Origin: a virus
Virus record (IMG/VR): IMGVR_UViG_3300017681_000004
Span: 1 to 39,406 of that record
Length of the DNA: 39,406 nucleotides
Reading direction: 5' to 3' (one strand)
The notes under the pieces are model-generated. The model saw only the letters and a list, made by a program, of their open reading frames with translations, had not been told where the DNA came from and ran no database searches. Position numbers and translations under genes: made by a program. Within the stretch, counting starts at the first letter, position 1. The number at the start of each line of letters is the position of its first letter. This document shows positions 2,474 through 39,406 of this stretch, in pieces.

Positions 2474-2790
2474 TTCACCAACACGGCCCGCACCGCCTCC
2501 ACGTTTACGCCCGCCCGTGCGGCGCCGTCGGCGATATCACCCCATCGCTCGTGCGGCACCGCCCCATCGGGCCAGCGATACAACGTGTTCGGATCGATGC
2601 CCACGGCCCGACAGAACGGCCGCACGCCCCCGAACAGCCCGACAAGTTCGGCGTGTCTCTCCGGCGGTCGCGGCGCGGTCTCGGGCCGATCTCGCCGCGG
2701 CGTCTTGCGCCACCAAGCCAGATAGTGCCGCTGACACATGCCCCGACAGACCGCCTCCTCCTCGCAACTCATAACCATGCATCTCGTCAT
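2470..2790 (-). CDS. Cro/YdaS-like HTH regulator with Cys-rich N-terminus (106 aa)
   Basis: ATG 2788-2790 preceded by GGAGG (2796-2800). N-terminus C..C..C.GMC..HY. C-terminal FCRAVGIDPNTLYRW is HTH-like. First gene after the leftward promoter. Confidence 0.55.
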   Translation of the reverse strand: MTRCMVMSCEEEAVCRGMCQRHYLAWWRKTPRRDRPETAPRPPERHAELVGLFGGVRPFCRAVGIDPNTLYRWPDGAVPHERWGDIADGAARAGVNVEAVRAVLVK

Positions 2791-2806
2791 CGCGACCTCC
2801 TGAGCC

Positions 2807-2847
2807 CGTATAAAATGCCGTTGACACCGCGTCAACGGCTCTATAGA
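2807..2847. promoter_or_regulatory. Face-to-face divergent sigma70-like promoters embedded in a perfect palindrome
   Basis: GCCGTTGAC (2817-2825) N5 GTCAACGGC (2831-2839). Plus strand: TTGACA 2821-2826 with TATAGA 2842-2847. Minus strand: TTGACG (2830-2835), 17-nt spacer, TATACG (2807-2812). Confidence 0.7.
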
Positions 2848-2878
2848 CCGGGAATGGGAACTGAAACGGGAGATGCAG

Positions 2879-3076
2879 ATGACAGTCGATCAGATTTTGC
2901 GCGATATTGACGAGCACGGGTTACAGTTTGGCTGTAACAGACTCGCCGAGGAGCGCCCTGAATATCTCTGGTATGTCCGAATTGGATCAGACTACAGCAA
3001 GGCCCGACGCGGAGCGACGTTTGAGGCCGCCGTGCTCGCCGCTTGGGCTGCGTACACGAACGCGGAGGGCAAGTGA
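2879..3076 (+). CDS. Hypothetical protein (65 aa)
   Basis: ORF 2873..3076. The second ATG (2879) follows the conserved leader AAACGGGAGATGCAG-ATG shared with the other early cassettes. Confidence 0.55.
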   Translation: MTVDQILRDIDEHGLQFGCNRLAEERPEYLWYVRIGSDYSKARRGATFEAAVLAAWAAYTNAEGK

Positions 3077-20869: not shown

Positions 20870-21105
20870 TCCACCGTCAGCACGATCGCGTCGAGGCCAG
20901 CAAACACGATGCCGGCCTCGTCCGCAAGGTACAGGGGGCCGGCAGGGGGCGTGTTGAGGTCGATCACGGTCCCGTCAGACCACGCAAACGGCCGCCCCGC
21001 CTCGTCGCAGAGATACAGCGGGTCGTGCGACTTGTTCGGGAACAGGCCGCGCACGGGCGCGGTCCTGAACTCGTAGTCGTAGGTGGCGCGGCGATCATTC
21101 CGCAC
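20866..21105 (-). CDS. Small hypothetical protein with internal duplication (79 aa)
   Basis: PLYLCDEAGRPFAW and PLYLADEAGIVFAG are repeated motifs. Overlaps the upstream tailspike stop by 11 nt. Confidence 0.45.
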   Translation of the reverse strand: MRNDRRATYDYEFRTAPVRGLFPNKSHDPLYLCDEAGRPFAWSDGTVIDLNTPPAGPLYLADEAGIVFAGLDAIVLTVE

Positions 21106-23137
21106 TGAGCTTTTCGACCTTTTCGGCTAAATTTTCCAAGTACATAACCATGCCTGCCATCGCAAAAGAAAGAGCCTCCTCGTAGCGTATGCTGTACCTC
21201 TCGCCATCTGGCAGTTCGTCTAAGCAAATGAACCCATATGACAGCGGATCAAGACCGCGCTTTCTGCCAGAATCCACGACGCGCTGCGCAATCAATCCGA
21301 TATGTCGGCGGGCTTCCTTGCCTTTTTCGGCAACCGAATCTTTGAACTTGTATGAAACGAACAGCTTAGAAATATCCATACCCCACGCATTTTCAGCATC
21401 GGTCATGTCCGATATCTCAGACTTCAGATTCTCATCTGAGGACACGACGGGGGCGCTTCCGAGGTAAATCGTAGTCGCCCTGTTGCCGGCGGCGCCGAAG
21501 GATCTCTGGTTGTCGTCATAGGGGTGGAATGCCCCGGACGTCATCCACCAGATGTCACCAACGTCAGTCCTGCCGAAAGACTGGATTCCGCCGTATGCCC
21601 GCTGCGTCCACTTTGGATTGTCAAGATTTGTGTCGCTAATACGAAGCGATGCAACTTCAGTAAATGTGGTGTTAGTTTTTATTGCAGAGATACCTCCGAC
21701 GCTAAAGTCAAAGGTAGCACTTGTTTTATTGTATCCGTGGCTTGCTGTTCCGAGCACGGACCCATACAAATCGGACGACAGCTTAGTAGTGCTGACGACG
21801 TTGTCGTAAAAAACGCGGCCATTGTTTGGGAGCGCAATCGCACAGTTGCCGTTAGATGAAAAATCACCTCTGACCAAGTCGACACCGACCCGAGCCGTAC
21901 CGCCAAAAGCCCACACGGCGTCAATCGGCCTAGTGCCAAATGATGTATAGTATTCGGCTATCCAAACAGCATCTCTTGCGCCGGTGTTGTTGTTGCGATT
22001 GAACCCTTGAAGATAACCAATAGCCGCGATGTCGTGGCCAAGATCGTTAAAGCTGACTTCTCTGTTCGTAAGGAAAACACCATCAGATTGAGCAATGATA
22101 TCTCCACCATCGATACCAGCGGTAGAGGTTTCATAAAACGTGCGCTGACCAGGGGTCGGCTGGTAGCTTGCGGAAACACGGTAGAGTCGCGCGTAGCAAT
22201 CGCCGCCAGCGCTATGGAAAACGCTATCCTGCGCAAACGGGTTCATCGTACGAACGCCAAGCGTTACAGCATCGCCGGCAGCGTAAGCCATCGTCAGAGG
22301 CGGGGAAAACGTGACGACGTTACCGCTTATATTCTCAATCGTTACGCGATCCGTGTAATTCTCAGCGCTGCCGGTGTTTGAAAAAACCCCAAGTTTGTTT
22401 GTGGCGGCAAGCCCAACAACCGAGTTAAGCGTAAATGATGTTGCACCAATTCCAGCAGGAGCAGTCAGACGAGCCGCAAAACCACTATTCCCGCCCCTGT
22501 TTTCAAAGAACGAAAAATGTGGAGTGGTCGTGTCTTCTACATACCTTTCGTCCAGCCCGCTTCTAAGGCCGGTATTTACAATGAAATATTCTGGACGGAC
22601 TTTGCTCTGATCGCCGACGAAATAGGCATTGCCATCGCTTGGCCGCACCGGCTTTGTCGTGATCCAGCTATAGACCCCCGGAAAATCATTGACGTTTTGC
22701 CCGCGAACCTTGATCTGCCCCGGACCATCAAATCCAACGTCCCACGTCAGGTCGAGGCGCGTTGTCAGGTATTCGCCAGCGTCGAGATAAATTCTTTTAG
22801 CACCAGCGTTTTTCGCCGCCTGAAGCGCGGCAGCGTTGTCCGTAACGCCATCGCCTACGCCCCCAAAGACAGTTCTGAAATTGCTGGGGACGGCAGACTT
22901 CAGGGCCGCAGATGTCGGCGCACTGACCGGCTTTTGGGCGTCTGGCGTATTGTCCACGTTACCGAGCCCGACCGATTGCTTGGTCGCGGCTGGCACCAGT
23001 TGCGCTGCCCGGTCAGCCAACTTCTGCGAAGTGATGGCGACAGAAGCTCCTCCCTGAGCCGCTGGGATCGTCTCAGACCCGTCAAGCTGACCGGCAAGAG
23101 GAAGACCGCCGATTGTGCGAACGCGCGCTGTGGTCAT
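21095..23137 (-). CDS. Tailspike 1 with C-terminal intramolecular chaperone (peptidase S74 / endosialidase-chaperone domain)
   Basis: N-terminal GLGNVDNTPDAQKPVS fibre motif. The C-terminal VVSSDENLKSEISD...RHIGLIAQRV...YSIRYEEALSFAMAGM matches the self-cleaving chaperone domain (nt ~21098-21442). The body is low G+C: 40% in 21661-21720. Confidence 0.8.
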   Translation of the reverse strand: MTTARVRTIGGLPLAGQLDGSETIPAAQGGASVAITSQKLADRAAQLVPAATKQSVGLGNVDNTPDAQKPVSAPTSAALKSAVPSNFRTVFGGVGDGVTDNAAALQAAKNAGAKRIYLDAGEYLTTRLDLTWDVGFDGPGQIKVRGQNVNDFPGVYSWITTKPVRPSDGNAYFVGDQSKVRPEYFIVNTGLRSGLDERYVEDTTTPHFSFFENRGGNSGFAARLTAPAGIGATSFTLNSVVGLAATNKLGVFSNTGSAENYTDRVTIENISGNVVTFSPPLTMAYAAGDAVTLGVRTMNPFAQDSVFHSAGGDCYARLYRVSASYQPTPGQRTFYETSTAGIDGGDIIAQSDGVFLTNREVSFNDLGHDIAAIGYLQGFNRNNNTGARDAVWIAEYYTSFGTRPIDAVWAFGGTARVGVDLVRGDFSSNGNCAIALPNNGRVFYDNVVSTTKLSSDLYGSVLGTASHGYNKTSATFDFSVGGISAIKTNTTFTEVASLRISDTNLDNPKWTQRAYGGIQSFGRTDVGDIWWMTSGAFHPYDDNQRSFGAAGNRATTIYLGSAPVVSSDENLKSEISDMTDAENAWGMDISKLFVSYKFKDSVAEKGKEARRHIGLIAQRVVDSGRKRGLDPLSYGFICLDELPDGERYSIRYEEALSFAMAGMVMYLENLAEKVEKLSAE

Positions 23138-23936: not shown

Positions 23937-24120
23937 CGCTGGCGGACTCCACGAGCGCCTTAAGCCGAGCCCAAGCGAGCGCTACCCGCTGCTGCTTGTC
24001 CGGTTCGCTGTCATCCATAGCGCAAGAGGCTTCGAAGACCAAGGCCGCGCCGAGGAGAGTTGCGCGCGGTTGGGGATCGAGGCGTTCGGCGAGCGTGCGG
24101 GCGGTGTGGAGGAGGGTCAT
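23926..24120 (-). CDS. Small hypothetical protein (64 aa)
   Basis: First ORF after the structured non-coding segment. ATG 24118-24120 lies 7 nt after a long hairpin (24128-24170). Confidence 0.45.
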   Translation of the reverse strand: MTLLHTARTLAERLDPQPRATLLGAALVFEASCAMDDSEPDKQQRVALAWARLKALVESASDAD

Positions 24121-24352
24121 ACGTTTAGGGTCGCCGCATTGGCCCGGTAGCGACCCGGATGCGACGACCCTTCAAGGCCGGGCCGGATTGGATACCGGCA
24201 TCTGCAAGATTTATCAGGAATCTGGCGTCACCATTTCTGGATCGGCTTCTCACGGCACCGTGCCTACCTGACCGTGAACCCTTGGGACGAATGGGCACCC
24301 ACCCGCTTGCGTTTTCCCATCAGCGCGTCTCTCCGCGCCGCCGGACGCCGGG

Positions 24353-24381
24353 TTTATTTCACTAGTTATGGGTCCTGTCAA
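24353..24381 (-). promoter_or_regulatory. Promoter-like element P-U3 (TTGACA-17-AATAAA) directly after terminator T2
   Basis: TTGACA at 24376-24381. GGAGAGAC leader and an 18-codon micro-ORF (24264-24320) lie 56 nt downstream, the same spacing as in the early cassettes. The -10 is weak. Confidence 0.4.
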
Positions 24382-24416
24382 CAGAAAGCCCGCCGACGCA
24401 GCGAACGTGGCGGGCT
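24382..24416 (-). terminator. Intrinsic terminator T2
   Basis: AGCCCGCC(ACG)...(CGT)CGGCGGGCT stem followed by TTTCTGTT on the minus strand. Confidence 0.65.
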
Positions 24417-24531
24417 CCCATAGCTACTCTCCGACCCTTTGGGTATCTCCGCATGCGCGGGGACCGGCACGCTGTCCTCTTGTCCGGTAGGCGCAGACCC
24501 TATTTTCAGGAGACCTGTGATCTGCCGCGCC
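24382..24531 (-). ncRNA. Candidate small transcript U2 (promoter P-U2 to terminator T2, ~140 nt)
   Basis: Bracketed by TTGACA-17-GATACC and T2. Contains the stems GCGGCAGA/TCTGCGC and CAGG-TCT-CCTG, and a 7-bp hairpin UCCCCGC-GCAU-GCGGAGA. Also holds a 19-codon micro-ORF with a GGAGAG SD. Its RNA or peptide nature is unresolved. Confidence 0.3.
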
Positions 24532-24560
24532 GGTATCTCACCGCTCGCCACCGCTGTCAA
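24532..24560 (-). promoter_or_regulatory. Promoter-like element P-U2 (TTGACA-17-GATACC) directly after terminator T1
   Basis: TTGACA 24555-24560, 17-nt spacer, GATACC 24532-24537. Confidence 0.5.
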
Positions 24561-24561
24561 C

Positions 24562-24602
24562 GAAAAGGCCCCGCCCGTGTGTCGCCACGGTCGGGGCCCC
24601 TT
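24562..24602 (-). terminator. Intrinsic terminator T1
   Basis: GGCCCCG-A-CCGTG-GCGACA-CACGG-G-CGGGGCC, a 12-bp interrupted GC stem, followed by TTTTCGTT. Confidence 0.75.
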
Positions 24603-24742
24603 CTATGGCAGGAGTGACGTCCGGTGGAACGGTCGGCACTTAATTGTCTGGCAACCCGCGCTCGCCTAACATGAGCACGCTCCGGTTTGCGATTGACGGA
24701 CCGAATATTCCGCCAGTGCGGTCTCACGGGTAACCCTGCCTG
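24562..24742 (-). ncRNA. Candidate small transcript U1 (promoter P-U1 to terminator T1, ~170 nt)
   Basis: Bracketed by TTGACG-17-GATAAG and T1. Contains only 10- and 33-codon reading frames. Several local stems, e.g. CCGC-ACUG-GCGG. Confidence 0.3.
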
Positions 24743-24771
24743 CTTATCTCACCCCCACGGGTTATCGTCAA
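24743..24771 (-). promoter_or_regulatory. Promoter-like element P-U1 (TTGACG-17-GATAAG), overlapping repeat R3
   Basis: TTGACG 24766-24771, 17-nt spacer, GATAAG 24743-24748 immediately after a TGA stop. Confidence 0.5.
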
Positions 24772-24772
24772 C
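24749..24772 (-). repeat. Repeat R3: GTT GAC GAT AAC CCG TGG GGG TGA
   Basis: Third copy of the portal 3' end (V)DDNPWG-stop. Confidence 0.85.
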
Positions 24773-24847
24773 CGGGTCGGACGCCATCTCGACTGCCCCA
24801 GGGAGCAAGGGATTCGAACCCCCGCTAGCTTTCGCCCCGCGCGCCAT
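24749..24847 (-). CDS. Candidate micro-ORF (32 aa) ending in DDNPWG
   Basis: MARGAKASGGSNPLLPGAVEMASDPVDDNPWG. The ATG is preceded by ACGGGGAGTCCGCAA, which closely resembles the early-cassette leader ACGGGAGACCAGCAA-ATG. Its C-terminus duplicates the portal C-terminus. Confidence 0.35.
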   Translation of the reverse strand: MARGAKASGGSNPLLPGAVEMASDPVDDNPWG

Positions 24848-24942
24848 TTGCGGACTCCCCGTAACAACCCCTTCGCCCGCTGATCAGGCGGAACCACGGG
24901 CGGCCTGCGGCTTTCAGGCTTCCGGTATGCACCCAACCTACA

Positions 24943-24966
24943 CTATCCCCACGGGTTGTCGTCAAC
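24943..24966 (-). repeat. Repeat R2: GTT GAC GAC AAC CCG TGG GGA TAG
   Basis: Second copy. Lies in the +1 frame relative to the Zn-ribbon gene, whose stop (24962-24964) is inside it. Also provides a TTGACG box (24960-24965). Confidence 0.85.
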
Positions 24967-27503: not shown

Positions 27504-28997
27504 TCAATCCCCCATCAAATCGTCGCCATACGCGCGCGACGCCCCAACCTCTGCATACCCGGTTTCGTCGCCCTTGTCTGGCTTTCTCGGCGGCGCGGCG
27601 GCGAGCGCCTTGTCGAGTAGCTGCCCGATCAGTCCAAGTGCGTCGACTTGGTCGTCATGGACGCCCGCCGGGAAGCGAAGCATTTCGGCTTCGAGCGCGG
27701 ACCTCCATACAGCCGAGGCTGGAACACGTAGCCCGCGACTCGCAATCATGCCGCGAAAAGATTGTGCACGTGTAGCCTTGTCGCCCCGCGTCGGGAACTG
27801 CTCGCGCACCGTGTACGCCTTCCGCTCCTGCATCGCGCGCGTCAGGTACGGGCCCACGCTCGCCTTGATCTGTCCGGTTTCCTCGGCCCATCCTAACGGT
27901 CTCCACTTTTTCACGAGGTCGCAAAACGCATCCACCCACACGTCCGAACTGGCCTGGCCGCGCCAGAGATCCACCAGCCACGGATTGTCCTCGGCATCTA
28001 GCCCGATGACCGCGTGCACCGTGTAATCGCCGCCGTTGGCCGTCACGGCGTAATCCGAGCCGCCGTAGAACCGATATGCCCCACCAGCCGAACGGGCGTC
28101 CTTGGGGCTGGAATCGACGGGGATCAGCCATTCGGCGCGGAAGAAATCGCCCGTGTCCGGCGTCGGCTCCTGCTGGAACAGCGCGGACCACGAGCGCGTG
28201 TCGAGTTCGGCGTGGCGCTTGCGCAGAAATTGTCCGTAGAGGTACGCCGGGTCGTTGTCCCACAGGTATTGCCCAGGCATCCGGCCGAGCGGGTCGCCGA
28301 GCCCTGCGATGGCCGGCATGGTCAAGACGTCCCATCCCTCAGGGTTCGCCTCGGAGACCAGCCCGTCGCGCTCGATCAGCCGGCCCGAGAGGTCGTCCTC
28401 GTGCCATCTGGTATTCGTTATAATTTGGCGGGCGCCGGGTCGCAGTCGGTTTTCGAAGTCGTCGAGGTACCATTCCCAGATACGGTCACGGACAAGTTTG
28501 CTGTCGGCGTCTTGTCGGGAGCGTATTGGATCGTCAACGAGGCCAAGATCGGCTCGGAATCCCGCGATGCCAACGCCCACGCCCGCCGCAAGATACTCTC
28601 GATCTCCCGTCGTGCTCCAGCGCTCAACCGCAGTTTCTCTGAGGCCGTATCCAAGCGTGTGTCCATGACTTGTCGCCAATCCCCTGACTTTTCGAGAAAA
28701 CCGCTGCGCCAACTGCGAATTGTGCGACCCGGCGATGACGTGCCCGCCTTTTTCGTGGGCCAAAAACCACGTCGGAAATAGCACGCTGCTGTACGAACTT
28801 TTGGCTGAGCCGGGCGGCGCGAATATCATCAACTTCCGGATCGACCCGTCAGCGACCGCCTGAAGGTGCTCGCACATGACGCGGTGATGCAACTGCGGCT
28901 GCTGGTCTGCGGGCTGAACGCGCCGGCAGAAGGCTAGGTAATCGCGCCGGAGGTGGCGGCGCTCTAGGAGGAGCGCCGCGGCTTGTTGGGGGGTCAT
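27504..28997 (-). CDS. terL: Terminase large subunit
   Basis: 497 aa. Walker A-like FAPPGSAKSS, LVDDP (Walker B region), nuclease-region TRWHEDDLSGRL. Confidence 0.9.
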   Translation of the reverse strand: MTPQQAAALLLERRHLRRDYLAFCRRVQPADQQPQLHHRVMCEHLQAVADGSIRKLMIFAPPGSAKSSYSSVLFPTWFLAHEKGGHVIAGSHNSQLAQRFSRKVRGLATSHGHTLGYGLRETAVERWSTTGDREYLAAGVGVGIAGFRADLGLVDDPIRSRQDADSKLVRDRIWEWYLDDFENRLRPGARQIITNTRWHEDDLSGRLIERDGLVSEANPEGWDVLTMPAIAGLGDPLGRMPGQYLWDNDPAYLYGQFLRKRHAELDTRSWSALFQQEPTPDTGDFFRAEWLIPVDSSPKDARSAGGAYRFYGGSDYAVTANGGDYTVHAVIGLDAEDNPWLVDLWRGQASSDVWVDAFCDLVKKWRPLGWAEETGQIKASVGPYLTRAMQERKAYTVREQFPTRGDKATRAQSFRGMIASRGLRVPASAVWRSALEAEMLRFPAGVHDDQVDALGLIGQLLDKALAAAPPRKPDKGDETGYAEVGASRAYGDDLMGD

Positions 28998-29143
28998 GCG
29001 ATCTCAGAGATCTCAACTAGAACCCAACCAAGAAGAACGCTTGCCTGTTTTGCAAGGCCCTTTGCCTCACGAAGGCTGGCGCAGTGAACAATCTGCGAAG
29101 TTCCTTGGCTGAACGTCAGCTTGAATTTCCGGTTGGCGGTCAT
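28994..29143 (-). CDS. Small protein translationally coupled to TerL (49 aa)
   Basis: MTANRKFKLTFSQGTSQIVHCASLREAKGLAKQASVLLGWVLVEISEIA. Its stop overlaps the TerL ATG (ATGA). Preceded by the conserved leader GGGAGAGACCAG-ATG. Confidence 0.55.
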   Translation of the reverse strand: MTANRKFKLTFSQGTSQIVHCASLREAKGLAKQASVLLGWVLVEISEIA

Positions 29144-29168
29144 CTGGTCTCTCCCGTTTCGATAAGCC

Positions 29169-29197
29169 TGTGTGACACGCCCTCCCGAGCGTGTCAA
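29169..29197 (-). promoter_or_regulatory. Early-type promoter (TTGACAC box) of the 49-aa/TerL cassette
   Basis: GAAATAAGTGTTGACAC. TTGACA 29192-29197, 17-nt spacer, CACACA 29169-29174. Confidence 0.6.
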
Positions 29198-29205
29198 CAC
29201 TTATT

Positions 29206-29463
29206 TCAGTTGGCAGGCGGTCCCGGCAGCGGCTGCCAGTGCGTCGGCCTAAGATCCTCCCGCACAAAATAAGCTCCCGTGCTTTCATAGCCCTGATCGA
29301 CGTCGCCAAGGTCTGATCGCCAAGCGATACCCTTATAGAGCGGCACCGCAACCGCTACGAACAGATCCGGCATTCCATCTTCTCGATTCCACGAATTCGT
29401 GCCAGGGGCATAAACCAGTATCGGCGTGCCGTCAGTTGGCGCGGTCTCAATCGGCTGCCACAT
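29206..29463 (-). CDS. DUF551-like protein (85 aa)
   Basis: MWQPIETAPTDGTPILVY...THWQPLPGPP is the pattern I associate with DUF551 phage proteins. Start chosen at the ATG 6 nt after GGGAGGG. Confidence 0.6.
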   Translation of the reverse strand: MWQPIETAPTDGTPILVYAPGTNSWNREDGMPDLFVAVAVPLYKGIAWRSDLGDVDQGYESTGAYFVREDLRPTHWQPLPGPPAN

Positions 29464-29482
29464 CGTCATCCCTCCCAACGAC

Positions 29483-29507
29483 AAGGGCGCCCTGGATGGG
29501 CGCCCTT
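29483..29507 (-). other. GC hairpin between cassettes (weak terminator or attenuator)
   Basis: AAGGGCGCCC-ATCCA-GGGCGCCCTT, 10-bp perfect stem followed by GTCGTT, right after the stop of the 40-aa ORF. Confidence 0.45.
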
Positions 29508-29511
29508 TGCC

Positions 29512-29634
29512 TTACGCGGCCGCCGGTGCGAAATAGCACCCCTTCCGCTCCCGCACGAACCGCCCGGCCTCTGCGAGCGTCAGACCCCAAGCGATCTGGC
29601 GGCGGCTCTTGGCGTCGATGATTTGGTAGGTCAT
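29512..29634 (-). CDS. Small protein (40 aa, below the ORF-track cut-off)
   Basis: Hand translation MTYQIIDAKSRRQIAWGLTLAEAGRFVRERKGCYFAPAAA. Has its own promoter and the leader ACGGGAGACCAGCAA-ATG. Confidence 0.5.
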   Translation of the reverse strand: MTYQIIDAKSRRQIAWGLTLAEAGRFVRERKGCYFAPAAA

Positions 29635-29661
29635 TTGCTGGTCTCCCGTTCCGATGTGTTT

Positions 29662-29690
29662 GTTATACGTCGGCGCTATTGGCGTGTCAA
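29662..29690 (-). promoter_or_regulatory. Early-type promoter, near-consensus sigma70 (TTGACA-17-TATAAC)
   Basis: GAAATAACCGTTGACAC. TTGACA 29685-29690, TATAAC 29662-29667. Confidence 0.75.
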
Positions 29691-29693
29691 CGG

Positions 29694-29927
29694 TTATTTC
29701 TCAGTATCCGCCAGATGAAGGCCGAGCCTAGAATTTAGAACCCCCGGCTTTCCCGACGCTTCACGGGACATCGTTCCGAAACTATGGAAGTGCGCGTAGG
29801 CGTCAAGGCTCTGCGCCATAGCACGCGCCGGCTTGAGGTATCGTCTAGCATCGGCGTCCGACGCAAAAGGGCCAGCAAGAAGCGCAATGCGCCTCCCGCT
29901 GACCATGCTGACGTAAAATTCTCGCAT
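29694..29927 (-). CDS. Hypothetical protein (77 aa)
   Basis: MREFYVSMVSGRRIALLAGPF... is the C-terminal part of listed ORF 29694..30191. ATG overlaps the upstream stop (TGATG). Confidence 0.5.
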   Translation of the reverse strand: MREFYVSMVSGRRIALLAGPFASDADARRYLKPARAMAQSLDAYAHFHSFGTMSREASGKPGVLNSRLGLHLADTEK

Positions 29928-30157
29928 CAGACAGCGCGAAAGTGAACAAGCGAGGAGCCGAGGCAGAGAGCGCCAGCAGAGTAGGTGGTGTCCGCGAGAA
30001 GGTCGGACTCGGGCAGGCTGGCGACGATGAGATCGCGGCAGGACATGACGGCCTTGACGAGAACCGAGCGGGTCTTGCGCTCGCTGGTCATCGGCAGAAC
30101 GATGGTCTTGCCAGCGGTGCTGAGAACGATCTGGTAGGTGGTGATTGCCTTGGCCAT
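29927..30157 (-). CDS. Hypothetical protein (76 aa)
   Basis: MAKAITTYQIVL..., preceded by GGGAGAGACCAG-ATG. Confidence 0.55.
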   Translation of the reverse strand: MAKAITTYQIVLSTAGKTIVLPMTSERKTRSVLVKAVMSCRDLIVASLPESDLLADTTYSAGALCLGSSLVHFRAV

Positions 30158-30181
30158 CTGGTCTCTCCCGGCTGATGACCC

Positions 30182-30210
30182 TTTGTGCCATGCCTTGAGA
30201 TCCGTGTCAA
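30182..30210 (-). promoter_or_regulatory. Early-type promoter (TTGACAC box)
   Basis: GAAATAGCCGTTGACAC. TTGACA 30205-30210, 17-nt spacer, CACAAA 30182-30187. Confidence 0.6.
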
Positions 30211-30213
30211 CGG

Positions 30214-30456
30214 CTATTTCAAGATTTCTGCCAGAAGATTCTCGGCCTCGTCAAAGGTTGGCAGATCATTGCAGCGCAGTCTTAACTTCTGCACCATCGC
30301 AACCAGCGCCTCGTGGTTGTTCACGGCGCGGACGATAAACCAAGGATCGCCGCAGATCACGTCGCAAACTGGATCATCGTTGGGCCCGCTCACGATGGTC
30401 ATTGGGTCGCCGGACTCTCGAACCCGCCAAATTTCATCACTCTCGCTCATCGCCAT
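30214..30456 (-). CDS. Hypothetical acidic protein (80 aa)
   Basis: ORF overlapping the upstream gene by 20 nt. No motif recognised. Confidence 0.5.
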   Translation of the reverse strand: MAMSESDEIWRVRESGDPMTIVSGPNDDPVCDVICGDPWFIVRAVNNHEALVAMVQKLRLRCNDLPTFDEAENLLAEILK

Positions 30457-33012: not shown

Positions 33013-33269
33013 CCGCCGAAAACCCGGACCACCTGGACACCCGCCGCTGGCTCGCGAAGACTCGCCGAATATTGACCTTGAACATACAGGCGCAGCGGTG
33101 GTCGGTGCAGGACTTCAAGCTCGCCTGGCTTCTACGCGACCAGTTCACACGCGCCGAACTGCTGGCGATCCTCGAAATCGCCTGCGGGAAACGTTATGAC
33201 AATCGTAAGGGTATTGATAAGTTCTTAGGAATGATGCAGAAGCATATCGACGGTTTGGGAGACCAGTGA
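33009..33269 (+). CDS. Hypothetical protein (86 aa) in a low-G+C island
   Basis: MTAENPDHLDTRRWLAK... is the C-terminal part of listed ORF 32820..33269. ATGA overlap. Confidence 0.5.
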   Translation: MTAENPDHLDTRRWLAKTRRILTLNIQAQRWSVQDFKLAWLLRDQFTRAELLAILEIACGKRYDNRKGIDKFLGMMQKHIDGLGDQ

Positions 33270-34738
33270 TGACACAGGATGAGAAGACGACCGCGCACAC
33301 CGCTACGGCAGGCGACGGGGGCGAGCGCGTCCGGCACGTGAAGACTGGTGGCGAGTACGAGGTTATAGGCGAGGGTCGAATGCAGACCCACGGCTGGGAG
33401 GTGGAAGACACGCGGGATGACGCGGACGGCTGGCCGAACCACGGGCACTACCCCGTCGATATGGAGCCGGTGACGATCTATCGCTCAAGGTCCGATGGTA
33501 GATTGTGGGTTCGTCCAACGGCCGAATTCCGCGACGGGCGCTTTGAGACGATCGCCCAAGCCCCGGCCGTACAAGCCCCTGCGGGGGAGGACTGGCAGGA
33601 CATCAGCACGTGCCCGAAGGATAGCTTCCCACGTCTCGTGTGGCGAGAGGACTACGGGACCTGCGTCGCTTTCGTTGACGTGACCGGGCAGTGGTGGCCG
33701 GTGCCCGCCTTTGAGGAGTTGCCGACGCCGCCTAAGCTCTGGCAGCCGCTCCCCGCCTCGCCTTGGGCAACCACCCCCACAGACGCCCAGCCCAAAGCCG
33801 CCAGGCCCGTGGGGGAGGAGGCGCTGCGGGAAGCGCTTAAAGGCGTGCTGTTTGAGTATGACCGCAACACCTGCGCTCACGAGGAGACGCATCGCGGCGG
33901 GTCACTCTGGACGATCTGCGACCAGTGCGGCCGTAAGTGGGCCGACGACGAAGGCGGGTTTCAGCCTTACGCTGACCCGACAGCCGTAGCTAACGCTCGA
34001 AAAATTGTGTGCGAGCTCGTCACCTCCCATCCCACCACCGGGCAGGAGACCGTGGCGACACCGCGAGACGGTGGGGTCAGGGAGGCGCGCTGGGGCATCG
34101 AGGACACAGGCGACGCCATCTGGGTTGGACCGATGCGTTCGGACGGCCGCAAAATTGATCGCGTTGTCTACTTCAAGGACGATCTCGGCCTGCACCGAAA
34201 GGAATACGTCGCCCAGGTGAAGGCAGATGCTCGCCTGATCGTGGACGGCGTAAACGCCGCCCTCTCCGCACCCGGAAGCGCAGGGCCGGGGGCGCCGCAG
34301 ATCAAGGCTAAGGAGCGTGCTCGCAAGCGAATCCAGGCACTTGGTGCCGCGCTGTCTCGCCGGGACTGGAGCGAGACCGAGAGGGCTTATGAGGCCATCC
34401 GCGACGCCCACGACCGGCCCGACATTTACGATGCGCCGCTACGCGCCACCCCGTCCCCCGCACAAGAGCCCGGCACCGGGGATACGGGGGCCTTGGCGCC
34501 CGCAGTCCGATCCGCGCTGGTGGCTGCTGAGAACGCCCTGAGGCCATTCGCGTCGTTCGGCGATCCTCGGCGCCACTTCCCCGGCGACCACGTCATCACG
34601 CAAGGGTCTGCGCTCGCCAAGCGGCAGTTGCAGATGCGCGACTGCTACGACGCCGCCGACGCAATCGCTTTCGTCAAGGCTGCGCTCACCCCCGCCACGA
34701 CGGCCGAGACCCGCGACCCTGCGGAGGGCGCGCGATGA
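33266..34738 (+). CDS. Multidomain hypothetical protein (DUF1653-like N-terminus, DUF551-like module, Cys-cluster, C-terminal domain), 490 aa
   Basis: RVRHVKTGGEYEVIGEG...PVTIYRS..DGRLWVRPTAEF (DUF1653-like). WQDISTCPKD...LWQPLP (DUF551-like). CAHEETH...CDQCG. Confidence 0.6.
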   Translation: MMTQDEKTTAHTATAGDGGERVRHVKTGGEYEVIGEGRMQTHGWEVEDTRDDADGWPNHGHYPVDMEPVTIYRSRSDGRLWVRPTAEFRDGRFETIAQAPAVQAPAGEDWQDISTCPKDSFPRLVWREDYGTCVAFVDVTGQWWPVPAFEELPTPPKLWQPLPASPWATTPTDAQPKAARPVGEEALREALKGVLFEYDRNTCAHEETHRGGSLWTICDQCGRKWADDEGGFQPYADPTAVANARKIVCELVTSHPTTGQETVATPRDGGVREARWGIEDTGDAIWVGPMRSDGRKIDRVVYFKDDLGLHRKEYVAQVKADARLIVDGVNAALSAPGSAGPGAPQIKAKERARKRIQALGAALSRRDWSETERAYEAIRDAHDRPDIYDAPLRATPSPAQEPGTGDTGALAPAVRSALVAAENALRPFASFGDPRRHFPGDHVITQGSALAKRQLQMRDCYDAADAIAFVKAALTPATTAETRDPAEGAR

Positions 34739-35267: not shown

Positions 35268-35632
35268 CCGCCCCCTCACCTCACACCCACCCCGCAGAGC
35301 GAGAGACCCCGGCCGGCGAGGCGATGCGCGAGGCGGTGGCGCAGTGGCTGGAGTCCGAAGTCGGCCTCTATGTCTCAGATGCCGCCGAGAAAGCCGGTGA
35401 GTTCTGCGGGCCATCCGGCCCCATCGCCCCGGAACTCGCCCGCCTCACGGCTCGCATCGAAGTCGCGGAGGCCAAAGCCGAGAACGCGGACCTCATCGCC
35501 AAAAACGAATGGCTTCGGTCTGAAGGCTTGCTCGCCCGCGCTCGCGCCGCCGAAGCCGCCCTCATCACGCTTCGCGCCGACCACGCCGCAGAGGTGGCGA
35601 GGCTGCGCGACGAACTGAAAGCCGCCCAATGA
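35264..35632 (+). CDS. Hypothetical coiled-coil protein (122 aa)
   Basis: MTAPSPHTHPAERE... is the C-terminal part of listed ORF 34934..35632. ATGA overlap. C-terminal heptad-like region. Confidence 0.5.
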   Translation: MTAPSPHTHPAERETPAGEAMREAVAQWLESEVGLYVSDAAEKAGEFCGPSGPIAPELARLTARIEVAEAKAENADLIAKNEWLRSEGLLARARAAEAALITLRADHAAEVARLRDELKAAQ

Positions 35633-36030
35633 ACGCGCCCCACAAGCAGACCCGCGTCGAGGCAGAGCTAGGACGCGCCATGATGCGAATCGGCGAACTC
35701 GAGGAGGAAATCGCGCGGCTGCAACGTCTCCTCTTGCCGGCAAGAGGAACGCCGCCAGCCTGGCGCCTCACTGCCAAAGAGGAGCGCTTGATGCTCGCGA
35801 TGGAACTCGTATACCCGAGGACTCTGACGGCTGAAAAGGCCCTCGAAATGGTCTGGCCTGACACGTTCCCGGACAAGCGCGTGCTGCACGTGATGGGCGT
35901 AAATATCCGGAAGAAAATCGAGCCACACGGCTGCGGGATCATAACCGTGTGGGGCCGCGGTTACCGAATAGATGAGCGCACGGCGCAGGCGATTCGCGAT
36001 TATGATATAGCCGTTGACACGACTGAGTAG
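35629..36030 (+). CDS. OmpR/PhoB-type winged-helix DNA-binding regulator without receiver domain (133 aa)
   Basis: LTAKEERLMLAMELVYPRTLTAEKALEMVWPD...RVLHVMGVNIRKKIEPHGCGIITVWGRGYRI matches the Trans_reg_C pattern (LT..E..L......L...VW....R.L.V.I..LRKK.....I.TV.G.GY). N-terminal coiled coil. Confidence 0.75.
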   Translation: MNAPHKQTRVEAELGRAMMRIGELEEEIARLQRLLLPARGTPPAWRLTAKEERLMLAMELVYPRTLTAEKALEMVWPDTFPDKRVLHVMGVNIRKKIEPHGCGIITVWGRGYRIDERTAQAIRDYDIAVDTTE

Positions 36031-36042
36031 ACGGGGCATACA
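36014..36042 (+). promoter_or_regulatory. Early-type promoter (TTGACAC box) inside the 3' end of the regulator gene
   Basis: ATAGCCGTTGACAC. TTGACA 36014-36019, 17-nt spacer, CATACA 36037-36042. The leader GGGAGAGACGG-ATG follows. Confidence 0.6.
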
Positions 36043-36084
36043 GGGTTCACGGCCGGCGGGGATCGGGCCGGATGGGAGAGACGG

Positions 36085-36195
36085 ATGAACCAGATAATCG
36101 GAACGTCGGATATCCTGCTGATGGCCTCGCCATCGCTGCTGTTCGTGGTCGGCATGGGGTTTCTGTTCATGCTCGTTCGGAGGGCTGACCGGTGA
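36085..36195 (+). CDS. Small membrane protein (36 aa, below the ORF-track cut-off)
   Basis: Hand translation MNQIIGTSDILLMASPSLLFVVGMGFLFMLVRRADR. Conserved leader upstream. Confidence 0.45.
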   Translation: MNQIIGTSDILLMASPSLLFVVGMGFLFMLVRRADR

Positions 36196-39118: not shown

Positions 39119-39354
39119 CCGCGCGCGTCTCGCTAGTCGACCAGATCGCCACCGTCGAGCGCGTCGCCCACGAGATCGCGATGCTTATGAAAGAGCGAGA
39201 TTTCTACGTGAGCTACCCGCAGATGGTCGGCTTTGAGTTGGAAAACCTACAGGCCGCAGTGCGGACGCTGGAATTCATGCGGGCGCACGAACAGACCATC
39301 CGAGACGCTATATCTAGCGCAAGAGCACTTGACGCGGCACAAGTAGAGCCGTAA
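39115..39354 (+). CDS. Hypothetical protein (79 aa); 3' end lies in the terminal repeat
   Basis: MTARVSLVDQIATVERVAHEI... ATGA overlap with the upstream stop. The last 71 nt are duplicated at 1-71. Confidence 0.55.
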   Translation: MTARVSLVDQIATVERVAHEIAMLMKERDFYVSYPQMVGFELENLQAAVRTLEFMRAHEQTIRDAISSARALDAAQVEP

Positions 39355-39406
39355 ATCAGAGGCCACTGGTCTCCCCCAGTCTCCTCGGTCCTCCCAGACC
39401 ACTAGC
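39284..39406. repeat. Terminal direct repeat, right copy (identical to 1-123)
   Basis: Exact 123/123 identity with the left end. Confidence 0.97.

Follow-up and report, generated by a model that had tools for sequence, protein, structure and literature searches.

Putative promoter-and-leader modules ahead of small genes in an uncultured phage resemble host-type promoters joined to a very short common 5' UTR

The window considered here is the whole stretch of 39,406 nucleotides of the virus record IMGVR_UViG_3300017681_000004 of IMG/VR. Its first-pass annotation had described a family of early promoter-plus-leader cassettes at five places, three of them stacked just upstream of TerL ahead of very small genes. 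The question raised by this locus is whether such a repeated element serves as a promoter for the host polymerase, as a target of a phage protein or RNA, or is left over from duplication. In the current analysis all five sites have been located at the positions given, with TTGACA starting at 30210, 29690 and 29197 on the minus strand and at 2821 and 36014 on the plus strand, and their enrichment is far above chance. A sixth module, absent from that annotation, has been identified on the minus strand back-to-back with the module at 2821. The six modules of the window are referred to as M1, M2, M3 (minus strand), M4 (plus strand), M4' (minus strand) and M5 (plus strand), and their features are as follows.

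30155..30220, minus strand: M1, with box GAAATAGCCGTTGACAC (30220-30204) that contains the TAG stop codon of an 80-aa gene
30210-30205, minus strand: -35 of M1, TTGACA
30190-30182, minus strand: TGG and -10 of M1, CACAAA
30176, minus strand: predicted +1 of M1, an A
30157, minus strand: ATG of M1, following the leader AUCAGCCGGGAGAGACCAG
29927-30157 and 29694-29927, minus strand: 76-aa and 77-aa ORFs downstream of M1
29632..29700, minus strand: M2, with box GAAATAACCGTTGACAC (29700-29684) that contains the TAA stop codon of the 77-aa gene
29667-29662, minus strand: -10 of M2, TATAAC
29655, minus strand: predicted +1 of M2
29634, minus strand: ATG of M2, following the leader AUCGGAACGGGAGACCAGCAA
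29512-29634, minus strand: 40-aa ORF downstream of M2
29477..29505, minus strand: terminator-like hairpin GGGCGCCC-AUCCA-GGGCGCCC followed by UUGUCGUU, directly 3' of the 40-aa ORF
29141..29207, minus strand: M3, with box GAAATAAGTGTTGACAC (29207-29191) after the TGA of the DUF551 gene
29196-29173, minus strand: hairpin of 9-10 bp that fills the spacer of M3
29177-29169, minus strand: TGT and -10 of M3, CACACA
29163, minus strand: predicted +1 of M3
29143, minus strand: ATG of M3, following the leader AUCGAAACGGGAGAGACCAG
28994-29143, minus strand: 49-aa ORF downstream of M3, with its stop codon overlapping the TerL start (ATGA)
2810..2881, plus strand: M4, with box ATAAAATGCCGTTGACAC
2821-2826, plus strand: -35 of M4
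2844-2849 or 2842-2847, plus strand: -10 of M4, TAGACC (17-nt register) or TATAGA (15 nt)
about 2856, plus strand: predicted +1 of M4
2873 or 2879, plus strand: ATG of M4, following a leader that ends in GAAACGGGAGA; the genes downstream are a 67-aa ORF, then exonuclease, HNH and further genes
2788..2839, minus strand: M4', GCCGTTGACG
2835-2830, minus strand: -35 of M4', TTGACG
2812-2807, minus strand: -10 of M4', TATACG, after 17 nt
about 2800, minus strand: predicted +1 of M4'
2790, minus strand: ATG of M4', following the Shine-Dalgarno sequence (SD) AGGAGG; the genes downstream encode a 106-aa zinc-ribbon/Cro-like HTH protein (2470-2790), then a SNF2 helicase
36003..36087, plus strand: M5, with box GATATAGCCGTTGACAC inside the 3' end of the winged-helix gene
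36014-36019 and 36037-36042, plus strand: -35 and -10 (CATACA) of M5
about 36049, plus strand: predicted +1 of M5
36074-36081, plus strand: SD of M5, GGGAGAGA, with the ATG at 36085; the genes downstream are 36-aa and 60-aa ORFs, then the primase-helicase

M1, M2 and M3 are stacked in a variable region that extends from a conserved 134-aa gene to TerL, and M4, M4' and M5 head replication/recombination operons.

The upstream box CCGTTGACAC is exact at four sites and reads GTGTTGACAC at 29197. Its four exact occurrences compare with 0.11 expected (at most 2 in 300 Markov simulations), and with one mismatch allowed there are 9 matches against 2.77 expected. The pattern TTGAC[AG]-N17-NANANN is found at 11 sites of the window (1.05 expected), ten of which face an ORF from a gene end or from non-coding DNA. 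The composite TTGACAC..GGGAGA..ATG gives 3 regex matches and none in 500 simulations. All six copies point into a downstream ORF from gene ends or intergenic DNA, and related phages keep them at orthologous places, which bears out the description as promoter-plus-leader cassettes. The overlap of the stacked boxes with the stop codon of the preceding gene (AAA TAG, AAA TAA, and TGA followed by AATAAG) is confirmed by translation. An interpretation as iterons or a pac site was set aside, since the copies are about 500 nt apart, are present also at the replication operons and each face an ORF.

TTGAC[AG]C is present in all six modules, a clear 17-nt spacer in five, and an A at positions 2 and 4 of the -10 is invariant in all six. 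The spacer of 16-17 nt and the list of -10 hexamers proposed earlier hold at four sites, where 17 nt lead to CACAAA, TATAAC, CACACA and CATACA; the TATAGA proposed at 2821 is only 15 nt off. In the 17-nt register the -10 at 2821 is TAGACC, and its assignment is ambiguous between the two registers. The distance from the start of TTGACA to the ATG is 52-71 nt. Two features had been missed: a TG that precedes the -10 by one base at 30210 and 29197, and a conserved CATC at the predicted start site. Its C-A falls 6-8 nt 3' of the -10, where a start would be expected. GGGAG(A) stands 5-9 nt ahead of the ATG in all copies. The leader, which runs from AUCGAAACGGGAG to the AUG, measures 20-23 nt in the predicted transcripts and is unstructured. 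ACGGGAGAGACCAG-ATG is exact only in M3 (29157-29141), and the variants are CCGGGAGAGACCAGATG in M1 (at 30171), AACGGGAGACCAGCAAATG in M2 (29690), AAACGGGAGATGCAGATG in M4 (2821) and GGATGGGAGAGACGGATG in M5 (36014), which has a longer leader with a GC hairpin. The leader 17-mer with up to 3 mismatches occurs twice, against 0.11 expected.

These modules are probably host sigma-70/RpoD promoters, each joined to a standard and very short 5' UTR so as to form a portable cassette that is also involved in gene exchange. The TTGACAC or TTGACGC would serve as the -35 for the host RNA polymerase, followed after 17 nt by a -10 of the form xAxAxx, which may be assisted in the two weakest copies by the extended -10 TGn. 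The AT-rich DNA around -45 to -40 may function as a UP-like element of the proximal kind and would also supply the stop codon of the upstream gene. Transcription is predicted to start at the A of the conserved C-A-T-C. The transcript would begin with AUCGAAAC, continue unstructured into GGGAG(A), the usual SD of the phage, and reach the AUG after 20-23 nt, such that each unit would be a self-contained cassette for promoter and ribosome entry. The stacked copies in the variable region before TerL would each activate one or two small ORFans. Architecture, orientation, enrichment and persistence despite turnover of the genes are observed, while the activity as promoters, the start site, the timing and the role in recombination are predictions from sequence. 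Early timing is made plausible solely by comparison with other small ORFans that are read from strong sigma-70 promoters.

Genes for a phage RNA polymerase or sigma factor have not been found among the about 50 ORFs scanned, and promoters of host type would therefore be needed. The rhizobial promoter consensus, reportedly put forward by MacLellan in 2006, is CTTGAC-N17-CTATAT. The modules resemble alphaproteobacterial RpoD promoters in their TTGACAC/TTGACGC, their 17-nt spacer and the A's at positions 2 and 4 of a -10 that does not require a final T, but their exact leader does not belong to the host promoters and is no commoner than chance predicts across 596 Gb of cellular genomes. The RpoD consensus of Caulobacter comprises a -35 of TTGaCgS and a -10 of GCtANAWC (PMC8144410). 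TTGACAC and TTGACGC fit this -35, and the -10s keep both A's of GCtANAWC, the TATAAC of M2 matching 6/6 of tANAWC (PMC8144410). The modules agree with a promoter of this type in -35 (TTGaCgS), spacer (about 17 nt) and -10 (tANAWC type). A simple E. coli-type promoter scan recovered none of the module sites because their -10s are without the final T, and this is not counted as evidence against their being promoters.

The host is most likely an alphaproteobacterium, as suggested by the GC content of 62%, the distant similarity of TerL to Brucella phages and the prophage-like leader matches in three genomes (Stappiaceae, Henriciella, Chthonobacter). The proteins of the window have no homologues in the cellular genome loci that carry the leader, and a blast comparison of two contigs that bear modules with plasmids and phages gave no indication of the host.

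The leader has a wider distribution among viruses. TTGAC-N26-36-ATCGAAACGGGAG is found in 50 viral contigs, where the reversed 13-mer used as a control gives 9, and N is 29-30 in 37 of the 51 viral matches, which places ATCG at the predicted +1. A C precedes the A in 24 of 30 non-redundant copies, and 22 of the 30 have an A at position 2 of the -10. The start codon follows the 13-mer by 3-13 nt in 49 of the 54 matches tested, three ORFs of the window included. The downstream ORFs encode 47 proteins, mostly of 40-100 aa, in 34 unrelated clusters. In L103 a module of 104 nt occurs twice at a distance of 348 nt, the two copies being 98% identical. The 63 matches in 596 Gb of cellular genomes are about the chance number by our own estimate, taxonomically scattered and mostly without a start codon. 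The literature contains no paper with ATCGAAACGGGAG, a shorter string matching only unrelated miRNA primers. The occurrence of the leader in other uncultured phages, ahead of dozens of tiny genes that are unrelated, therefore points to an ordinary type of signal reused as a portable expression cassette. Part of this spread may be due to shared descent, since many of the 50 contigs have distant replication genes in common.

The first-pass annotation had proposed a shared translational operator. A structured RNA operator within the leader is rejected, as the predicted 5' UTRs fold no better than shuffled sequences (z of -0.06, +2.6 and +1.05) and GGGAGA is the commonest Shine-Dalgarno sequence of the phage. 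That a phage RNA or protein binds the leader as a linear operator and exerts post-transcriptional control there seems improbable, though its conservation runs from +1 through the SD and is exact (ATCGAAACGGGAG) across phages whose proteins are 30-45% identical. The RNA proposed for this role, an equally improbable partner, is a structured one of about 85 nt at 75-160 of the window, with loops UCUCCC and CUCCCA complementary to GGGAGA. It belongs to an element (46-160; z -5.7) that combines a promoter-like site with two anti-SD loops and ends in an intrinsic terminator, and which is kept in three relatives and has a weak ar14-like Rfam match of 22.8 bits (E 0.019); this score is far below the threshold, and at gathering thresholds Rfam assigns nothing in the whole window, which also has no tRNAs. 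Its 5'-CUGGUCUCCC-3' (83-92) is the exact complement of GGGAGACCAG in the leaders of M2 and g33269, and 11 of 12 positions are complementary in M1 and M3. However, by our rough estimate antisense complementarity of 10 nt to any of several 10-mers from the leaders is not rare by chance in 39 kb, the complementary stretch lies partly within a stem, and the loop of the relatives, UCCUCCC, pairs only with the generic SD and not with their own leaders beyond 6 nt. Ranking of duplexes between the candidate RNA and all start regions gave implausible energies and no usable order. In a broader form of this proposal, which we regard as unlikely, the 13-nt start AUCGAAACGGGAG, at a fixed distance from TTGAC, is a phage-only plug used throughout the clade, under control of an ar14-like sRNA and with genes exchanged at that point; any small ORFan placed there would be expressed at once, and the loops UCUCCC/CUCCCA would pair with the leader.

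Comparison with relatives whose TerL is 75-82% identical to that of the window bears on the host-type promoter reading and on the origin of the copies. Modules are present at the same positions in four to five related phage genomes, and the small genes beneath them differ. Records of relatives are 3300034069_000419, 3300017682_000002, 3300017432_000003, 3300017440_000006 and 3300017417_000002. The relatives keep a module ahead of a small gene upstream of TerL, ahead of the 60-aa and primase genes, and in the divergent HTH/67-aa region, where the intergenic DNA of M4/M4' is 87% identical and the flanking proteins are 44-50% identical. No tblastn match of the 49-, 40-, 77- and 76-aa genes was obtained in the relatives. 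Genes kept with boxes lost had been named as the outcome that would speak against the cassettes; the reverse is observed, boxes and leaders being kept while the small genes are replaced. Three modules precede TerL in the window and one in most relatives; L081 has none and carries an HNH gene at that position. As the cassette fronts unrelated small genes and differs in number between close relatives, it is probably also a patch of shared sequence for the gain, loss and swap of small genes, a role described for the promoter-early stem-loops of T4-like phages. Its role in recombination is only suggested by these differing numbers and by the flank that M1 and M2 have in common.

This flank comprises 36 nt shared at 78% and extends into the last codons of the preceding genes, and the leaders of M1 and M3 are identical over GGGAGAGACCAGATG. 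Both would be expected if a single promoter region had recently been duplicated in tandem, with stacked copies that have no function of their own and whose likeness is inherited and not selected. But the spacers between -35 and -10, the sequences from -10 to +1 and the genes are all unrelated between modules, conservation is confined to the -35 box, both A's of the -10, the start site and the SD, which is a signature of selection, and the same architecture is found again in distant phages. Recent duplication is hence very improbable as the whole explanation. The serial duplication considered in the earlier description finds agreement in the M1/M2 likeness and disagreement in the spacers; it is partly supported, and selection on functional parts, rather than recent copying, accounts for most of the likeness.

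A further explanation, which we consider doubtful, is that the -35 flanks GCCG-TTGAC-AC-G form the site of a phage DNA-binding protein, in which case the modules would be a factor-dependent class (middle, late or repressed early) and not constitutive host promoters. The -35 boxes of M4 and M4' make a perfect 9-5-9 palindrome, GCCGTTGAC-ACCGC-GTCAACGGC (2817-2839), exactly between the HTH gene and the divergent operon, and it is kept in relatives as GCTGTTGACACCCCGTCAACGGC within intergenic DNA far more conserved than the flanking genes. The half-site GCCGTTGAC or ACCGTTGAC recurs at M1, M2 and M5, and the -10 hexamers are weak. Yet such a palindrome is expected anyway from two back-to-back promoters with the same box, its half-site centres are 14 bp apart, and a convincing second half-site is missing at M1, M2 and M5. 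The flanks are uniform within each genome and differ between the window (CCG-TTGACAC-G) and the relatives (CTG/GTG-TTGACAC-TAACC), but they are not conserved across the wider set of 30 modules. They are not explained by polymerase contacts alone, and a co-evolving factor or homogenisation between copies could account for them. The best candidate for a factor, to be taken with the same doubt, is the conserved 106-aa zinc-ribbon/HTH protein encoded beside the palindrome.

The first-pass annotation had instead pointed to the phage winged-helix protein, which is of OmpR type, as the candidate activator. The gene concerned (Trans_reg_C; 35629-36030, 133 aa) occurs only in the window and in a single relative, L083. 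The portions of L081 and L082 that were analysed have no copy of it, and since these two relatives keep TTGACAC modules the proposal is rejected on that evidence. Inspection of the module sequences revealed no OmpR/PhoB-type direct repeats of about 10-11-bp periodicity flanking the box, and an activator-dependent promoter of that type is not supported. The winged-helix protein has no tblastn match among cultured phages.

Among known systems the closest analogue of the predicted host-type cassettes is the promoter-early stem-loop (PeSL) of T4-like myoviruses (Arbiol et al. 2010, PMC2839356; Comeau et al. 2014, PMC4122927). Both have the stop codon of the upstream gene in an AT-rich stretch, followed by a sigma-70 -35/-10 and by an SD and start codon at the 3' end. 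This layout is matched by the three stacked copies, and M4, M4' and M5 also have the boxes. In both systems there are many repeats, concentrated in variable regions directly ahead of small ORFans, the copy number varies between close relatives, and some copies have a hairpin between -35 and -10 (here M3 and M4). In PeSLs a stable stem-loop in or beside the promoter terminates or attenuates transcription from upstream, and the motifs bound the indels that distinguish close relatives. Here the stem-loop is strong in only 2 of the 6 copies, namely M3 (z -4.7) and M4/M4' (the 9-bp palindrome), and weak or absent in M1, M2 and M5; the 30 wider modules have a mean z of -0.57, a weak trend. Unlike in PeSLs, the conserved part is the 5' end of the transcript (AUCGAAACGGGAG) and the -10 is of the alphaproteobacterial xAxAxx kind. 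The phage, of about 39 kb, is unrelated to T4-like phages, distantly Brucella-Tb-like in TerL, and the 39-kb genome encodes a Tb-like TerL, portal, major head and tail-spike proteins. PeSL promoters have been shown to be early and strong, whereas the present modules are known from their sequence.

With these results, putative promoters and 5' UTRs can be annotated in a group of uncultured phages whose nearest cultured relative has about 45% TerL identity. DNA similarity of the region to cultured phages is limited to about 320 bp of TerL (68%), and the assembly index has no record for the TerL of the window. PeSL-like regulatory cassettes ahead of ORFans would not be limited to T4-like phages, and nothing in current understanding is overturned. 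The leader, phage-specific and not above chance in cellular genomes, could be used to search viral contigs from metagenomes for small early genes, and could be a compact expression part for alphaproteobacteria.

Divergent overlapping promoters of the lambda PR/PRM type form the switch of temperate phages. M4 and M4' resemble them in lying back-to-back between a Cro-like HTH gene and a replication/recombination operon, in a highly conserved region, but here the -35 boxes themselves make the palindrome and there are no tripartite operators.

Morons, a concept of Hendrix and Juhala, are extra genes with their own promoter and terminator between conserved phage genes. They are known from temperate phages, with expression from the prophage. 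Neither an integrase nor a repressor, CI-like ones included, was recognised among the ORFs of the window that were scanned, and prophage expression is not applicable because no integrase was found. M1 and M3 differ from morons in being without terminators of their own. The M2 unit resembles one in its predicted promoter, 40-aa gene and terminator hairpin (dG -24.9, z -4.0); it is closed as promoter-gene-terminator by this putative terminator at 29477..29505, and it sits between genes that adjoin in the relatives.

Five modules, each comprising a predicted -35/-10 promoter, a Shine-Dalgarno (SD) leader and an ATG, are present where the first-pass annotation had placed them, and its reported overlap of the upstream box with preceding stop codons is correct. 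A sixth module (M4'), overlooked at that stage and lying back-to-back with M4, has been identified in the current analysis.

30210, minus strand: module M1
29690, minus strand: module M2
29197, minus strand: module M3, stacked with M1 and M2 upstream of TerL
2821, plus strand: module M4
36014, plus strand: module M5
TTGACG 2835-2830, N17, TATACG, AGGAGG, ATG 2790, minus strand: module M4'
27504-28997, minus strand: TerL

The box CCGTTGACAC has 4 exact occurrences in the window against 0.11 expected, and five of the six occurrences of TTGACAC belong to modules. A 17-nt spacer separates the -35 TTGACA from the -10s CACAAA, TATAAC, CACACA and CATACA; the spacer to the TATAGA assigned at 2821 is really 15 nt, and the 17-nt register gives TAGACC. 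The two poorest -10s (CACAAA, CACACA) are preceded by TG one base 5', as in an extended -10, and C-A-T-C is found 5-7 nt downstream of the -10 in M1-M3, at the predicted transcription start. The leader described as shared is exact at 29157-29141 only, the remaining four copies being variants. GGGAGA is the commonest SD of the genome, preceding at least 10 genes. M2 is a predicted complete promoter-gene-terminator unit. M4' heads the gene for a 106-aa zinc-ribbon/Cro-like protein, and its -35 forms with that of M4 the perfect palindrome GCCGTTGAC-ACCGC-GTCAACGGC.

The pattern TTGAC[AG]-N17-NANANN is represented by 11 sites in the window against 1.05 expected (maximum 6 in 300 simulations), 10 of them located in non-coding DNA or at gene ends and aimed into ORFs or non-coding transcription units. 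The Caulobacter RpoD consensus consists of the -35 TTGaCgS and the -10 GCtANAWC (PMC8144410). Both the module -35s (TTGACAC/TTGACGC) and the invariant A's at positions 2 and 4 of the module -10s match this consensus. An E. coli-type promoter scan detected none of the modules because their -10s fit the Caulobacter-type consensus and the scan demands a final T. The spacers share no sequence likeness, which is confined to the functional parts, and leader folding z-scores are -0.06, +2.6 and +1.05. The module is best read as a host RpoD promoter that would be joined to a minimal, unstructured 5' UTR.

With about 62% G+C, the window represents a complete genome of phage type. An exact direct repeat of 123 nt (1-123 = 39284-39406) is present, and the window is a single complete genome unit of 39283 bp, circularly permuted or terminally repeated. 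Among about 50 ORFs scanned, none was recognised as coding for an RNA polymerase, sigma factor or integrase; lacking a recognised polymerase or sigma gene, the phage must use the host RNA polymerase. The minus strand also codes for portal, major head, head-closure, tail-spike and endolysin-like proteins, and a primase-helicase, an SNF2 helicase, an exonuclease, an HNH and a VRR-NUC-like endonuclease are encoded elsewhere; none of the genes was recognised as that of a DNA polymerase. The closest cultured phages by TerL identity are Microcystis phage Mwe-JY13 (47%) and the Brucella Tb group (44%).

Four or five IMG/VR genomes with TerL 75-82% identical were compared as relatives. They retain a module ahead of a small gene upstream of TerL (..AATAGCTGTTGACACTAACC..GACAAG..CATCGAAACGGGAG..ATG), and a second ahead of the 60-aa/primase genes. 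The palindromic pair that separates the HTH gene from the 67-aa gene is kept as well; identity in the M4/M4' intergenic region is 87%, as against 44-50% for the flanking proteins. By tblastn, none of the four small genes under M1-M3 was matched in any of the relatives. The first-pass annotation had held that relatives conserving the genes and losing the boxes or leaders would speak against it; the opposite is seen. Three modules occupy the pre-TerL site of the window against one in the relatives, and in L081 (3300017440_000006) an HNH-like gene (2540-3040, minus strand) replaces the cassette directly upstream of TerL, without a module there. The turnover of small genes, the differing number of modules and the module-free L081 site therefore associate the pre-TerL modules with the variable small genes and not with TerL. 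L081 also has a DUF551 homologue (463-645) between TerL and portal rather than upstream of TerL; its placement and the HNH-like gene are further evidence for a probable shuffling of small genes around the packaging genes. The upstream flank of M1 aligns with the single module of the relatives, M3 abuts TerL as their module does, and M1 and M2 have 36 nt in common that extend into the preceding genes. This agrees with, and does not prove, cassettes having been inserted through recombination between modules.

A winged-helix protein (Trans_reg_C) had been proposed as activator, which is not supported: its gene is absent from the parts compared of two relatives that retain the modules. A regulator acting at the M4/M4' palindrome is possible: the -35 flanks are uniform within each genome and different between genomes, a pattern not accounted for by contacts with the polymerase alone.

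The promoter-early stem-loops (PeSLs) of T4-like phages have the stop codon of the preceding gene within an AT-rich stretch, then sigma-70 -35 and -10 boxes with a stem-loop in or near the promoter, and an SD sequence and start codon at the 3' end (PMC2839356). They cluster ahead of ORFans in hyperplastic regions, and indels arise from recombination between their copies (PMC2839356). Judged from sequence, the window modules would operate as PeSLs do. However, the phage group is unrelated to the T4-like phages, and most of the modules lack a strong stem-loop; strong hairpins between -35 and -10 are found in M3 and M4, and 30 wider modules give a weak trend (mean z -0.57). The modules are thus a variant of the PeSL and not a member.

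The combination TTGAC-N26-36-ATCGAAACGGGAG has been identified in 50 viral contigs of 4 to 322 kb, against 9 for a control with the 13-mer reversed. Of 51 matches, 37 have a gap of 29 or 30 nt, so that ATCG falls where the transcript is expected to begin; among 30 non-redundant copies, the A follows a C in 24, and A occupies -10 position 2 in 22. Several of these contigs share with the window only distant homologues (30-45% identity) of the exonuclease, helicase or primase. The 47 proteins encoded after the leader, mostly of 40-100 aa, fall into 34 unrelated clusters. In an unrelated viral contig (L103, 4416-4867) two 104-nt promoter + ATCGAAACGGGAG modules, 98% identical and 348 nt apart, flank a small ORF, the same stacked layout as in the window. 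Cellular genomes (596 Gb) gave 63 matches, close to our own chance estimate, scattered across phyla and mostly without a start codon; three alphaproteobacterial matches (Stappiaceae, Henriciella, Chthonobacter) look genuine. Enriched in viral contigs and near chance in cellular genomes, the leader thus belongs to phages and not to the host. It was not found in the literature searched.

Another promoter-like site, TTGACG-N17-TAAATC, lies within the final plus-strand gene, at its 3' end.

46-160, repeated at 39329-39406, plus strand: candidate small-RNA element with promoter-like site, two hairpins and terminator

This candidate phage small RNA is predicted as a strongly structured transcript of about 85 nt (z -5.7), followed by an intrinsic terminator (121-160). 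UCUCCC and CUCCCA, the loops of its two hairpins, complement the usual SD GGGAGA. The element is conserved in three related phages (L081, L082, L083) and has a weak ar14-like Rfam match (22.8 bits, E 0.019). Two leaders contain GGGAGACCAG, of which the 5' arm and loop of the element are an exact complement; by our rough estimate this could be chance.

About 840 nt between structural genes (24120-24960, minus strand) have no convincing ORF, no tRNA by ARAGORN and no meaningful Rfam match. Three or four more promoter-like sites, TTGAC[AG]-N17-(G/A)ATAxx, occur here, closely preceded by TGA (24771, 24560, 24381); two lie immediately 3' of hairpin-plus-T-run terminators. At about 24810 the sequence GGTTCGAATCC resembles a tRNA T-loop. 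In the replication block a 489-aa ORF (33269-34738, plus strand), without Pfam hit and with a PHROG match spanning only 22 residues, starts in the same SD context, GGGAGACCAG, and overlaps the preceding stop (TGATG). The tail-spike/fibre gene (21095-23137, minus strand) sits in 2 kb of DNA with 52-54% G+C, about 10 points under the remaining genome, which suggests recent acquisition.
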